This document shows, one piece after another, positions 9,881-48,259 of a DNA stretch of 64,000 nucleotides (within the stretch, counting starts at the first letter, position 1; every line of letters starts with the position of its first letter). The position numbers and the translations under genes were made by a program. The DNA is from Eledone cirrhosa (taxonomy: Eukaryota). Where the stretch lies: the NCBI GenBank assembly GCA_964016885.1, contig OZ024742.1:266290001-266354000 (forward strand). Direction: 5' to 3'. The notes under the pieces are model-generated. The model worked only from the letters and a program-made list of their open reading frames with translations, was not told where the DNA came from and made no database searches.

Positions 9881-10968
9881 AATAGTATGGTAGAATATTA
9901 AGTGTTAAGTGTTAATTGAACAAGTGTTAAGTGTTAATTTCATGCTTTCGCAATCTTCAGGTTCATATTTTGTGGTGACAGTCAAGTTTACAATTTTCAA
10001 CTGTAATGAGATGGGTAAATGTTGTGCCTTATATACAGTGAAAAGCGGCTACAGGATGCTAAATTTTGCAAACTGTATTTCGACCAATCGGTGTGTAGTT
10101 TCACTGGATTACTGAAGCTGATTGGTTTAGGCATCACGGTTGGTTGGGCATGTCTAACGACTTCTATTTGGCCCTATTCAAAGCATCAATTATTTTGCTA
10201 TTTTTAGAAATGATGAAAATAGCATTTTCTAGGGTTTTTATACCCCTAAGAATTATTATTGTTCATTTAGCTTGGGTTGGAATTTTGAAAATTATTCCCA
10301 AATGCAAATATGAACTGCAAAAGCAGAAATCTAATTTACTGAATTAAATGCCCGAATTGTGAAGAACTATATGTCGGTCAAACTGGAAATGCACTATCGG
10401 AACGTGCACGGGTGCACCGACAGCAAATCAGAGACCCCCAAATGTCTGTCAGATACCCATGAGTAACCATCTAGCAACATGTGGTCAGAAAATATTTATA
10501 ATATTTCCATTCTACAAATTACACAGGCCAAGTGAAATCAAGAGAAAAATCAAAGAAAAGAATTTTATTGATAAATTCCAACCCAAGCTAAATGAACAAT
10601 AATAATTCTTAGGGGTATAAAAACCCTAGAAAATACTATTTACATCATTTCTAAAAATAGCAAAACAATTGATACTTTGGATAGAGCCAAATAGAAGTCG
10701 TTAGACATGCTCATCCAACCATGACGCCTAAACCAATCAGCTTCAGTAATCCAGTGAAACTACACACCAATTGGTCGAAATACAGTTTGCAAAATTTAGC
10801 ATTCTGTAGCCGCTTTTCACTGTATATAAGGCACAACATTTACCCATCTCATTACAGTTGAAAATTGCAAACTTGACTGTCACCACAGAATATGAACCTG
10901 AAGATTGCGAAAGCATGAAAGTACTTGTTCAATTAACATTTAACACTTAATATTCTACCATACTATTC
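9881..10968 (+). mobile_element. 5'-truncated Penelope-like element: GIY-YIG C-terminal remnant flanked by ~400-bp inverted pseudo-LTRs
   Basis: The spacer translates NLIY*IKCPNCEELYVGQTGNALSERARVHRQQIRDP...FIDKFQPKLNEQ* (10328-10601). 9881-10285 is the reverse complement of 10573-10968. Confidence 0.85.
10893..10931 (+). ncRNA. Minimal type-I hammerhead ribozyme motif in the Penelope pseudo-LTR
   Basis: TGAAC-CTGAAGA-tTGC gaaa GCAt-GAAA-GTAC-TT-GTTCA. Stem I TGAAC/GTTCA, palindromic stem III AGTACT, predicted CUU site; the 10.1-11.1 pair is U-U. Confidence 0.65.
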
Positions 10969-10977
10969 AGATTACAT

Positions 10978-11435
10978 CTATAAAATTCAGATTACATCTA
11001 TATATATACACATACATATATATATATACATTCATATATATACATACGTACACACATATACATATATACAAATACACATATATATATATACATTCATATA
11101 TATATACATACATACACACATATACATATATACAAATACACATATATGCATATATATACACATATACATATATATACATGCACATATATACATATACAAT
11201 ATGTATAGGATTCCTTTCCCTTTGAGCACATAATTCACAGGGAATAACGCGACTCTATGGCTCCGTTAATTTATCTTCATATATATATATATATATACAT
11301 ACATACACATATGCATATACATACACACACATATGCATACACACACATGCATACACACATATATACATACACACATATATATATACATACACACGCACAT
11401 GTATATAGATATACATACATATATATACATATAAT
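10978..11435. repeat. (TA)n/(TACA)n/(CA)n microsatellite tract
   Basis: Direct inspection. Confidence 0.95.
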
Positions 11436-12190
11436 ATAAGATCAAAAGATGGTTAAAAGAGTTCCATGTATTTTATTATGCGCATTTCAAAAACAAATAT
11501 CATCATGAGATGACATTTGCGTTTTCGTCAGATAAAATAGGGATACATGATATGAAGGTTAAAAAACACTTGTGAATAGTGCAGTTTTAAATCAACATAT
11601 GAAAAGTAATTTAAGATTGATGTGTGATATTGGGGAAAAAATGAGGGGGGGGGGTGAAAAAGAGGAGGAGATGAGAGTAAAGAATGGTGGGGGTGGAGTA
11701 TAATAAGGAAGGATGAGATAGGAGGAGAGATGGGTGATAGAAAGAGAGAGATAGCCTTTATAACTGAGAAAAAATATATATTGTTTCACAGAGAGAGGTT
11801 AAAAAGCCGTTGGAAGATAATATATAATTTAAAAGAATTTGAAAATTGATGAAGAGAAAAAATTAAGAATAATATTAAATTAAGGTTTGTATATTGAAGG
11901 GTTTAATAATTATTATATATATGTATAAGGTACTTGACGATGAGCATTCTAGTTGTTCAATAAACTGATTGAATAATACAAACCATGTTTTAATATACAG
12001 ATTCATTATTTGTGTATATATAATATATACAAAGCATATAAATAAATTTACAGTAGAATAACATAGCAAATATGTTTTAAATATATACATAAATAACATT
12101 ACCAATGCTTAAATAACATTATAAATTGCTCGCGATTCTTTCAGAAGGATATATTCCTTTAATGTTGCAATATTAAAGAAAATATACGTA
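11431..12190 (-). mobile_element. Non-coding hammerhead-bearing repeat (Penelope pLTR-like), same family as 14457-15428
   Basis: 11431-11630 matches 14457-14660 directly. 11660-11915 matches the reverse complement of ~14985-15230. Confidence 0.7.
11469..11539 (-). ncRNA. Type-I hammerhead ribozyme
   Basis: TATTTTAT-CTGACGA-aaacgcaaatgtcatc tcat gatgatatttgttttt-GAAA-TGCGCA-TA-ATAAAATA. 8-bp stem I, long stem II, palindromic stem III, AUA site. Confidence 0.85.
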
Positions 12191-12313
12191 TATATATACA
12201 TACATATATTTATTCAACTAAGGAAAGTTGGTTGATTGAAAATCTGCCAACTCTTTCATAACTGATGACAAACACTCAACAGTTTATGTTTATCCGGAGT
12301 TTTATTATAATAA

Positions 12314-12975
12314 CTAGACCACCCGTGACCCGTTGGGTCATGTTCACTTTAAAATATTTTTTTTTAAATCGTGTTCACTTAAAAATAATTTTTAAATAGT
12401 AAAAATATACACAGACATGTATATAATGTGAAATGAAACTGGAAGACCTATATATATATACGTGAGTGTATGTATATATATATATGTGTGTCTGTGTGTG
12501 TAAACATATACATATATATGTATGTGTATATATATATATATATATGTGTGGATGTCTGTGATCTACATGCACTGGTCATAATCATACACATATATATATA
12601 TATATATTCACACACACTCACATATATATATATATATATATATACACACACAACAGCACCACCAGCTCTCTTACATTTTCTTTCTCTGTCTCCTCTCCCT
12701 CTTTCTGTCTCTCTTTCAATCTACTCTCTCACTACCACTATCTCTTTCTCTCTATCTTTATCTCTCTTTGTTTACTTTGTTTATGAAGGCACCAGGAAAA
12801 ACTCCATATGTCGGGAACCGGCGGTCCGATTTACGCGAAATTTGTTTTGTTCCATTTGTATTCCCATTTCAGGGTCAACTTCCTTTCAAAGTATTTTCCC
12901 ATTATGCGCCCTTTTGGCTGTATTACATTACAGATAAGCAAGCAAGCAATCAATCACAGACTTTTAGTATTATAT
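12314..12975 (-). mobile_element. Non-autonomous Helitron-like element with internal microsatellites
   Basis: The minus strand begins tataatactaaaagtc followed by (tgat/tgct)n, and ends with the hairpin tgaccc-aac-gggtca then ggtCTAGT. A second 5'-end remnant lies at ~13930-13991. Confidence 0.55.
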
Positions 12976-46000: not shown

Positions 46001-46519
46001 TTCTCCAACACCAGCTGTGTTTGGTTGACAGCCAGATCCCTGCTGTTAGACTAGGGAGAACTTGCTAGGTGAGAGTCCTTCACATGAAGTTCCAGCTTTT
46101 TTTTCACTGTTATTTGAACTATTTAGGTTCATCATTTAAGTACTCATGAAGAGAATTAGTGAATTCAAGGTTGCATTAACACCAGTGATTCTAACGTGGC
46201 ACCATCACTGGATTTGAGAGTTTATGTGATGCATATTGTTATTACTACCATTAAAGATCTTTGTGCCACCTTGTTTTCTTAATGTGAGCCCTGTGTGGCT
46301 AATGGTGAAATCATTATAATCATTTTTTTTAAATTGTTACTTTTTTCATATGTTTCTGTCGTGGTGGTGGTGGTGTGGGAGTCATTGTAATTGTTTGATG
46401 TCCACGGCTGTTTTTTTTTGTGGTTATCATTCCCTCTTTTTTTTTAGTTTCAAGGACACCAACATCAGTCTATAAAGAGATTGATGTCTACTTTTTGAAG
46501 TCACTTGGGCTGCTAGTGT

Positions 46520-47240
46520 TGTTGTTGCTGTTTTTGTATTTTGTCTTAGCAACTGTCTGGCAGGTACTGACTAGATTTTCCTAATGCGTCAGTGTGAACC
46601 TGGACCAACCACGTAGGGTCATCTAGATCATATATAGATAGGTTTTTCATTAGGTTAGCAGAAAAGGATAGTATAGGCTGTCCACAATTTTGAACAGTCA
46701 CCTATACAGACCACAAATTTGTGATCTGCATGGTTGCCCTAGATGGAACATGTAGGCTAGGACCTGGTTACTGGAAGTTTAATGCATCATTCCCAGCACG
46801 TTATGCCCAGCAGAGATAGGATCACCCCTTTAGTTAAGTGTAAGTTAACGGGGTGTTGTCAACAACAGGTGGTGGGGTTCTCTCAAGAGAGAGACTAGAG
46901 TGTCAATAGAATTTAGCAAAGAAGTAGCAATAGAAAAAATAGAAATGAATGGGAGCTGGGAGGTAAATTAGAAGAGGGGATTAGTAGTGACACTGCTACT
47001 GAAGTATTAGCAGTGAGAATGGCATTAAACCATTTCTTCAATGGGAAACACAAAGGTTGCATTGTCAGCTCTAAGAAATGAGGGCCCATGTGGCTCAGGC
47101 ATAACGTGGAAACAAAAAGACGATTCGGTCTTTGACGGACCAAGACAAATGTGTGCTGAACAATTCCAGGCAGATGTGTGAGGCTTTTTGCCAGCACTTT
47201 GCTCAACTATTCAAAGGGAGGGGAGGGGTCAGAGATGGTG
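46520..47240 (+). mobile_element. Highly decayed L1/Tx1-like LINE fragment
   Basis: SRSYIDRF and GPGYWKFNAS motifs from the endonuclease end and linker. Confidence 0.55.
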
Positions 47241-47244
47241 GCAG

Positions 47245-47845
47245 ACTTCACGCAAGTGTGTCACCTTGTAGAACTCCTGCTTTTACTTCAAAGGATTCAG
47301 TCTCGCCATCAGGTGATACAACGGTGGCAGTGGTGGTTTTGTACAGAGCTTCAATTGCCTCAACAATTCCAAAAGGTATTCCGTTTAAGTATTTTAAACA
47401 GAAAATCTCTACTGTTAGAATCAAATGCCTTGTGAAAGTCGACAAAGCAGATCGTGATCTCCCTGTTGAGTTTTTTCATTTCTTCCAGTATGCGGCAAAT
47501 AGAGAGAATTTGAGCAGCTGTTGTCCTGCCTCTTCTAAATCTATTCTGGTTCTTGCGAAGTAAAGGACCAAGGGCAGGGACAATCCTATTTAACAGAAGC
47601 TTGTTGTAGACTTTTGCCGCAATTGGCATGATAGTTATACCCTTATAATCTACTACACTTGTTAGATTGCCCTTTTTGGGGACAGGGACTATTCCACCCT
47701 TCAGCCAGGTTGAAGGAGGAGAGTGATGTATGATAGTGTGGTTGCAGAACTCAAGAAGGAAGTCATGAAAAGTTGGATCTTTCCACAGCAGTATTGGTAA
47801 ATTGTCAAGATCTGGAGATTTGTTGTTGGAGAATTCTTTGAGGGT
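47245..47845 (-). mobile_element. RTE/RTEX-like RT fragment
   Basis: YKGITIMPIAAKVYNKLLLNRI..LRKNQNRFRRGR..FVDFHKAFDS..GVLQGDTLA. Confidence 0.85.
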
Positions 47846-48185
47846 CGTTTTATTTTTTTATATATGAATATTGATTGTTTTCTTGTATCTCATTCTGTTA
47901 TTTTGCCCGAGAAAATATCTATGTGTGTTATCAAAAGTTGTACACACATGAATATTTTTTCAAGTTCCAATTGAGTTCTAGCACGTGGCCTGAATTCCTT
48001 TTAGAGTTCAATGTCATGCGCATGTATTGTTTTTTTGGCAGTAACTTACTTCCTCATTTTTTAATCGGTTTGAGTGTTTCTTTAGAACTGCTGGAATAGC
48101 AACCTAACAGATACCTCAGGCACTGATGGTGATTATCGCTAAATACTGATATTGGTTAGATTATCAATATTAGTATTATTGGGCA

Positions 48186-48259
48186 CCCACTGATGAATTA
48201 TTGGTATAATTTCACCCAAATTGTAGGAATCCTATAATGAAACGAGACGTCCGTCTGGG
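48186..48259 (+). ncRNA. Type-I hammerhead ribozyme
   Basis: CCCA-CTGATGA-ATTAT...ATAAT-GAAA-CGAGACGTCC-GTC-TGGG. Stem III contains the palindrome GACGTC; cleavage after 48255. Confidence 0.85.

Follow-up and report, generated by a model that had tools for sequence, protein, structure and literature searches.

Introduction

Penelope-like elements (PLEs) insert as 5'-truncated partial tandems with an inverted copy and an optional tail (PMC8557442), and the hammerhead ribozymes that they carry are described as cleaving weakly and in a dimer-dependent manner (PMC4209133). With a purified PLE protein, reverse transcription was found to start from two internal sites that define the tail, and to do so on uncut RNA, with hammerhead cleavage being dispensable for insertion in vitro (PMC11167929). 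A preprint reports cleavage in just one of nine dimers tested (bioRxiv 10.64898/2026.07.22.740005). As regards DNA transposons, Merlin has been reported as abundant in an octopus (PMC8101967), 31 recently active PLE families and two Merlin families are given in a 2026 octopus repeat annotation (PMC13282606), and the efficiency of cut-and-paste transposition drops above about 6 kb of cargo (review PMC6431247). Below, we describe a 64,000-nucleotide stretch of DNA (G000:C3:266290001-266354000; hereafter the window) from a 3.0-Gb animal assembly, in which nine candidate type-I hammerhead motifs of six families (A to F) are found, most of them within a giant Merlin-type element. The DNA is rich in (TA)n and in LINE sequence, a composition suggestive of a cephalopod, and octopus papers serve for comparison only. 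Very probably, these motifs are hammerheads of PLE pseudo-long terminal repeats (pseudo-LTRs), with four of the families coding, one a non-coding unit of about 700 nt, and one a dead relic, and seven of the nine motifs lie inside a Merlin-type element of 39 kb, by which three of them were likely copied as cargo at the DNA level.

Hammerhead motifs in the window

Using a strict type-I hammerhead descriptor, we found four motifs in the window (11469-, 15315+, 41590+, and 48186+, with the sign giving the strand), which three others (10893+, 14496-, and 15479-) join under a relaxed version that tolerates one first-pair mismatch or a U3-A8 core. These counts of four and seven were not reproduced in 100 local dinucleotide shuffles of the window, for which the strict and relaxed means were 0.02 and 0.39, and the maxima 1 and 2. 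A first-pass annotation of this DNA, which had named the descriptor and shuffle comparisons as checks, listed at least nine type-I hammerhead motifs with CUGANGA cores in about six families. Seven of the nine have the type-I core, CUGANGA (or U3-A8)...GAAA...UH, together with stems I, II, and III, whereas the motifs at 9917 and 16467 are broken, the former lacking the stem III palindrome and the latter the A15.1-U16.1 pair. The core of 15479 is not CUGANGA but UUGAUAA, a U3-A8 covariation, and this type of core (UUGANAA) is found as well in several unrelated families (loci L261, L190, L075, L188, and L278). Among the other relaxed motifs, stem II of 10893 begins with a mismatched U-U at its base, and in 14496 the first pair of stem I is mismatched. 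The palindromic stem III sequences that the annotation had quoted are all present in the window. An Rfam scan of the window, another of its checks, returned no hammerhead family among 98 matches with E values up to 10. In all, CUGANGA occurs at 31 sites in the window, and the remaining sites, including those of a 904-bp array, were rejected as hammerheads, as they failed the descriptor.

The six families were borne out, and we have named them A (10893+ and its broken inverted copy 9917-), B (11469-, 14496-, and 15315+), C (15479-), D (16467-), E (41590+), and F (48186+). On the whole, the hammerhead motifs are real, and are mostly the ordinary ends of Penelope-like retrotransposons common across the genome. 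Covariation of the stems, also proposed as a check, was found in a clade of B-like motifs. Here, for 22 distinct motifs taken from 38 listed ones to span the variants, 99.2% of the cells are paired and two-sided change is seen at 7 of 18 pairs, with lower values in shuffles and 35-62% pairing in slid registers. Moreover, for the stem III segments of families A, B, C, E, and F, folding in silico yields no hairpin in the monomer but gives self-duplex energies of -4.8 to -14.7 kcal/mol, which is the expectation for dimer-dependent motifs. The Penelope link and the weak palindromic stem III of the first-pass annotation are upheld.

Coding Penelope-like families

The features of families A, B, C, and E in the window are as follows.
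9726-10285, minus strand: family A inverted 5'-truncated arm, with the broken hammerhead at about 9917-9965
10289-10599, plus strand: family A PLE coding sequence for the C-terminal GIY-YIG endonuclease (parent residues 673-775, one frameshift)
10893-10931, plus strand: family A hammerhead with a 6-nt palindromic stem III (predicted cut after 10926)
11433-11914, minus strand: family B 5'-truncated copy, a later insertion, with a hammerhead at 11469-11539 (predicted cut 11477)
14371-15431, both strands: family B inverted pair of a short tailed minus copy and a plus copy
14496-14566, minus strand: hammerhead of the family B minus copy, with the stem I mismatch
15315-15385, plus strand: hammerhead of the family B plus copy (predicted cut after 15377)
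15428-16287, minus strand: family C 5'-truncated copy (15428-16185) and inverted tail (16186-16287)
15479-15525, minus strand: family C U3-A8 hammerhead
39430-40202, plus strand: PLE linker and GIY-YIG coding sequence, probably the upstream unit of family E
41447-41853, plus strand: family E pseudo-LTR and tail, with a hammerhead at 41590-41679 (predicted cut after 41673)
41845-42928, plus strand: decayed PLE reverse transcriptase (RT) after the family E tail

Families A, B, C, and E are the pseudo-LTR ends of protein-coding PLEs whose parents have an RT and a GIY-YIG endonuclease (EN). All four have the PLE anatomy of a pseudo-LTR tandem, an inverted truncated copy, and an optional tail, and a frame with RT and C-terminal GIY-YIG is continuous with the hammerhead end in A, B, and C, and linked through adjacency only in E. 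In general, the PLE-type families have fixed 3' ends downstream of the predicted cut, as well as tails, inverted truncated copies, and (TA)n targets. The first-pass annotation had placed four families in non-coding elements, and for three this was mistaken, since A has its GIY-YIG sequence in the window, and B and C are the long 3' untranslated region (UTR) ends of coding PLEs.

For family A, window positions 10289-10599 encode the last 103 residues of a PLE protein, with about 90% identity. In a search for this parent, open frames of 775 aa were found at 7 of 150 scored matches, and in all three of the 775-aa loci that were fetched the hammerhead lies about 390 nt 3' of the stop codon. Pfam recognised RVT_1 and GIY-YIG in the one such parent that was scanned. 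In the inverted copy at 9917, the stem III palindrome has been lost through a G-to-T change and a short duplication. As for family B, PLE coding sequence occurs at 13 of 30 loci, and in each of four long loci, picked for their long upstream similarity, it is on the same strand and ends 930-1010 nt before the motif. The ends of B are fixed (17 short and 13 tailed among the 30 loci) and lie in (TA)n, often as inverted pairs. A 60-bp array is found inside the family B 3' UTR (14693-15002). The tail of family C leads into the start of an RT frame, with pseudo-LTR and tail being directly upstream at 19 of 20 loci that hold the start of this open reading frame. In addition, five of six long C loci have a motif at each end of the RT-EN unit, 5.2-5.6 kb apart. 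Family E is old (about 80% identity), and its tail runs on into RT coding sequence in the window. The one RT family that adjoins the E end does so at three loci, namely the window and two others where the E end is inverted. That A, B, and C might be miniature inverted-repeat transposable elements, given their inverted ends, was ruled out, as their arms vary in length and run on into coding sequence.

The frames 39376, 39657, P0001, and L202 were not recognised by Pfam, and we assigned them by similarity and by motifs. On linker motifs rather than a tree, we take family A to be Neptune-like and families B, C, and E to be Nematis-like. The insertion at 40600-41370, between the GIY-YIG frame and the E end, may by its motif be the end of a Helitron helicase, and part of it (41082-41367) recurs inside Merlin copies. 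A search with a PLE-like protein of 709 aa gave 63 scored full-length matches, 44 of which are stop-free. Among loci L201-L230 are many young full-length PLEs of two further families, with one family having a hammerhead about 270 nt before the frame.

A non-coding unit and a relic

Families D and F have the following features.
47849-48450, plus strand: family F truncated monomer of a non-coding unit of about 700 nt
48186-48259, plus strand: family F hammerhead whose loop II has lost 53 nt (predicted cut after 48255)
16467-16515, minus strand: family D hammerhead relic that the Merlin element carries as fixed cargo, with a 20-nt loop II deletion in the window copy

The end of all 20 family F copies falls at a single site, about 190 nt beyond the predicted cut, with variable 5' ends, and those that exceed one unit wrap into the unit's own 3' end, eight of them clearly and two marginally. 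None of the 20 continues into coding or other shared sequence. Head-to-tail repeats of F are found as a dimer with a period of 703 (L115) and as a trimer with a core change in two units (L120). No PLE coding sequence lies within the unit, which has the one-hammerhead, non-coding, tandem form of a retrozyme. By its sequence, family F, which the first-pass annotation had not set apart, appears to be the sole non-autonomous, retrozyme-like unit among the six families, and only to this extent does the earlier proposal of non-autonomous ribozyme retroelements stand, as A, B, C, and E are coding and the D copies lie in a DNA transposon. Relatives of F with 75-85% identity were seen in the unselected stretches L260, L278, and L284, where stems I and III are changed yet paired, and L284, with a different upstream part, might lead to an autonomous parent.

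Family D has a good stem I and good core boxes, and the A15.1-U16.1 pair beside stem I can be formed in register in none of 20 aligned copies, the window's included. Of its 1424 candidates, 40 were scored, and the 19 other sampled copies are all flanked on one side or both by giant-element sequence. Family D is probably a dead relic, and its sampled copies lie within a DNA transposon and not a retroelement. Solely in the case of 16467 could the hammerhead resemblance be due to chance. PLE coding sequence near some D and F loci was considered as a parent and judged to be separate insertions, because it is on the wrong strand or downstream.

The giant Merlin-type element

The first 18 kb of the window belong to a DNA transposon that begins outside it.
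1-18069, no strand assigned: right half of a 38.9-kb Merlin-type element with terminal inverted repeats (TIRs), starting 20.9 kb before the window at G000:C3:266269122
18042-18069, minus strand: 28-bp TIR beginning GG, with an 8-bp target duplication at 18070-18077
17861-17905, plus strand: match to the histone 3' UTR stem-loop that reaches the Rfam gathering score (34 bits, E 4.7e-06), inside the Merlin element and close to its right end

Matches to A and D co-occur in fixed orientation across the genome, and outward walks from nine such places are collinear with window positions 1-18069 (76-98% by block), with the similarity among copies stopping exactly at the terminal repeat at 18069. The cargo order is likewise collinear in copies on chromosomes 1-4. 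Identical 8 bp precede the left repeat of the window's element (locus L180), and the 28-bp repeat is found inverted 24-39 kb away in sister copies. In fact, all ten end pairs have their own target duplication (eight of 8 bp and two of 9 bp), which is perfect in seven and has one mismatch in three, the interiors having been examined for eight of the ten. An eleventh end pair lies in (TA)n, where the target duplication is uninformative. The exact 28-mer occurs 276 times in the genome (143 forward and 133 reverse; control 0), and among 100 listed occurrences there are many inward pairs 18-60 kb apart and some 235-870 bp apart. Matches to PF12762 lie less than 1 kb inside eight of the listed repeats, and a transposase frame of 243-303 aa is found beside the repeat at four loci, the 303-aa frame matching PF12762 (DDE_Tnp_IS1595) with an E value of 6.7e-19. 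One of these transposase frames belongs to a 25.6-kb copy in which family A is present too. The marks of Merlin, namely TIRs of 24-462 bp starting with GG (here 28 bp), an 8-9-bp duplication, and an IS1595 transposase within such ends, were all observed. A Helitron or Zisupton identity was dropped because the IS1595-type transposase is found within the same ends.

Of the nine motifs, seven are inside this element, three likely as inherited cargo and four as later insertions. The B copy at 11433 is missing from 9 of 10 sister copies that span the site, and the block of B and C at 14371-16287 from all eight distinct places tested (10 loci, two of them duplicated). Moreover, 21 of 22 inverted family A arms share one stem III lesion, a pattern that suggests DNA-level copying.

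The interiors of the giant element hold long interspersed nuclear element (LINE) fragments as well as tandem arrays. Among the latter, a tandem array of about 904 bp (window 1-2693 and L160, with at least 10 more units upstream) is expanded in this copy, and each unit has a CUGAUGA and a minus-strand hairpin without a hammerhead. A G+T-rich satellite with a higher period of 384 bp occupies 2688-6905, and at 12975-13893 lies a minisatellite with a 101-bp repeat, 8.9 units long, that has inverted repeats inside it. Outside the left end, Ty3/Gypsy-like gag, protease, RT, and RNase H frames were noticed by eye (L180:4500-7200, minus strand).

Density across the genome

A relaxed scan of 34 unselected 10-kb stretches gave 40 matches, from which 13 from one satellite (L277) were discarded as false, leaving 27 matches in 330 kb (33 stretches, one of them with five). 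In 20 shuffles of 340 kb, there were 2-8 relaxed matches each. The background is hence about 4-5 motifs per 64 kb, as compared with seven in the window. The density singled out by the first-pass annotation is far above that of shuffles, but not above the genome background; it is typical of the genome, and the window is not special, since ribozymes are the expected cargo of PLEs. Roughly, the genome total is of the order of 200,000 hammerhead motifs, as extrapolated from a small and clumped sample. Over 315 retrieved loci, 374 descriptor matches form 48 clusters, 27 of which have more than one member and a few of which are false. At first look, the genome candidates, which are not copy numbers, came to 2248 for A, 298 for B, 1135 for C, 1424 for D, 2099 for E, and 2665 for F, with 40 scored per family.

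Proposed mechanism and alternative explanations

No family ends at the predicted cut, from which we infer that the initiation mechanism of PLEs seen in vitro applies here. The PLE protein would nick (TA)n DNA and begin to reverse-transcribe from one or two internal sites that lie beyond the ribozyme, with an uncut read-through or re-ligated RNA as the template. Such internal initiation would give the short and tailed ends, the 5' truncation, and the inverted arms. Single hammerhead copies would be mostly silent, with cleavage needing two motifs paired through stem III. Family F likely borrows the PLE protein and would be copied from tandem or circular RNA, and it is likely in trans that the Merlin transposase works on ends separated by 24-39 kb. 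The fuller picture is of about a hundred giant (24-39 kb) Merlins that transpose whole through a cut-and-paste mechanism, taking with them from chromosome to chromosome Penelope ends with ribozymes, LINE fragments, satellites, and a histone stem-loop, in a genome with about 200,000 hammerheads and a 700-nt retrozyme making circular RNA; for this, we consider the chances to be about even.

Several points weigh against the assignment of the motifs to PLE ends and their partial carriage by Merlin. The sequences used for covariation are related and descriptor-selected, and their pairing is supportive and not a probability, while the top matches of each family are skewed to copies resembling the window's own. 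The link of family E to its parent rests on adjacency, with an inverted geometry at two of three loci. Among the loci examined, no full-length intact B or E element was found, and a parent element was looked for in families D and F with none found. Three A loci outside the absence test carry B-like sequence at the 14371 site, and the B copy there may thus be common to a sub-lineage of the giant element. Lastly, no transposase match was found in the seven giant copies walked end to end, the window's included, and it is for this reason that mobilisation in trans is proposed.

It is improbable that most families are instead non-autonomous retrozymes spreading via small circular RNAs. This form holds for family F, and a circular template would explain why the insertion ends of B, C, and F are past the predicted cut, yet internal initiation on uncut RNA explains these ends equally (PMC11167929), and the coding parents of A, B, C, and E refute the retrozyme view as a general claim. 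Even less credence can be given to the shared 24-39 kb region being a segmental duplication, or independent miniature Merlin ends, and not a unit that transposes whole. Short elements with such ends do exist (the pairs 235-870 bp apart), internal extra copies of the terminal repeat occur, and the giant copies differ by many insertions and deletions. Set against this are the halt of similarity exactly at the terminal repeat, the individual 8-9-bp duplications at all ten pairs across 24-39 kb, and the collinear cargo order in copies from chromosomes 1-4.

Some motifs may be intronic, as one piece of a host gene was seen in the window.
27936-28346, plus strand: exon of a LisH/FOP dimerisation-domain protein (weak Pfam matches; the only host gene piece seen)
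Nonetheless, it is very unlikely that the window is a cluster of ribozymes under local selection and with a role for the host, such as processing the transcript of a gene that crosses the window, in that the background density is similar (27 matches in 33 unselected 10-kb stretches), two motifs are broken, the strands are mixed, and B and C copies are missing from sister elements. Three sequencing runs at the exon region were not used for expression, as a contig crosses the exon and its flanks. Least probable are chance matches in AT-rich repetitive DNA. While the relaxed descriptor does give false matches (13 from the L277 satellite and 2-8 per shuffled 340 kb), seven motifs against a shuffle mean of 0.39, their conserved position at PLE ends, and the covariation refute this for the seven that pass.

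Elsewhere in the window, decayed LINE fragments were seen at 25193-26960, 34074-34589, 36048-39150, 44614-45800, and 47363-47857, two of them with RVT_1, along with a very abundant short repeat at 28414-28583.

Comparison with known systems

The ribozymes described here fit as further cases of the kind that Cervera and de la Pena (2014; PMC4209133) described in metazoan PLE pseudo-LTRs. Shared are the many families per genome, the mostly single motifs from truncated PLEs, the opposite-strand pairs a few hundred bp apart, the palindromic stem III, the U3-A8 variant, and the activity as dimers, which for our motifs is predicted. In contrast, stem III is longer here (6-13 nt), stem II insertions of 40-95 nt are possible, and G10.1-C11.1 is often replaced. 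Our estimate of about 200,000 motifs also exceeds the 2,000-9,000 quoted there, though the descriptors differ. When set beside the canonical PLEs with a C-terminal EN, Neptune and Nematis (Craig et al., 2021, PMC8557442; Frangieh et al., 2024, PMC11167929), the coding families are alike in having one frame for RT and GIY-YIG, partial tandems, a 5'-truncated copy in inverted orientation, a tail in some cases, AT-rich targets, and two fixed ends, but have tails of about 100 nt instead of 30-40 and 3' UTRs of up to 1-2.8 kb.

Family F resembles non-LTR retrozymes (PMC7229834; bioRxiv 10.64898/2026.07.22.740005) in being non-coding, with 33% GC and one type-I hammerhead per unit, and in being found next to active PLEs in the form of monomers, a dimer, and a trimer. 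Its unit of about 700 nt is larger than the circles of 170-400 nt shown experimentally, and within the 51-972 bp of the preprint (bioRxiv 10.64898/2026.07.22.740005). Unlike retrozymes, F occurs mostly as scattered, truncated monomers that have a fixed end like that of PLEs. As far as its sequence indicates, F fits the model of a non-autonomous, PLE-derived retrozyme (bioRxiv 10.64898/2026.07.22.740005; PMC7229834). In the parts of the octopus repeat annotation (PMC13282606) covered here, the words 'hammerhead' and 'ribozyme' do not occur. Repbase, Dfam, or the supplements of PMC8557442 and PMC13282606 may already contain the families found here. Dozens of hammerhead families, young PLEs that are intact, and a non-autonomous partner would together make this genome a good system for the questions of in vivo cutting by PLE hammerheads and of circular templates.

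With regard to Merlin/IS1016 (Lopes et al., 2021, PMC8101967), the giant element is similar in its TIRs of at least 24 bp starting with GG, its 8-9-bp duplications, its DDE_Tnp_IS1595 transposase of about 300 aa, and its internal tandem repeats. Literature searches, at the level of their listings, gave no description of giant cargo-laden Merlins, and 'Merlin' does not occur in the covered parts of a giant-transposon review (PMC6431247). If the reading is true, Merlin would have a natural eukaryotic cut-and-paste form of a new size, 24-39 kb, through which satellites and fragments could spread and from which a compact transposase for large cargo might be obtained. Merlin lengths in the covered parts of PMC8101967 are 0.8-2.6 kb, whereas the elements here span 24-39 kb and are packed with fragments of LINEs and PLEs, with satellites, and with a match to the histone stem-loop.

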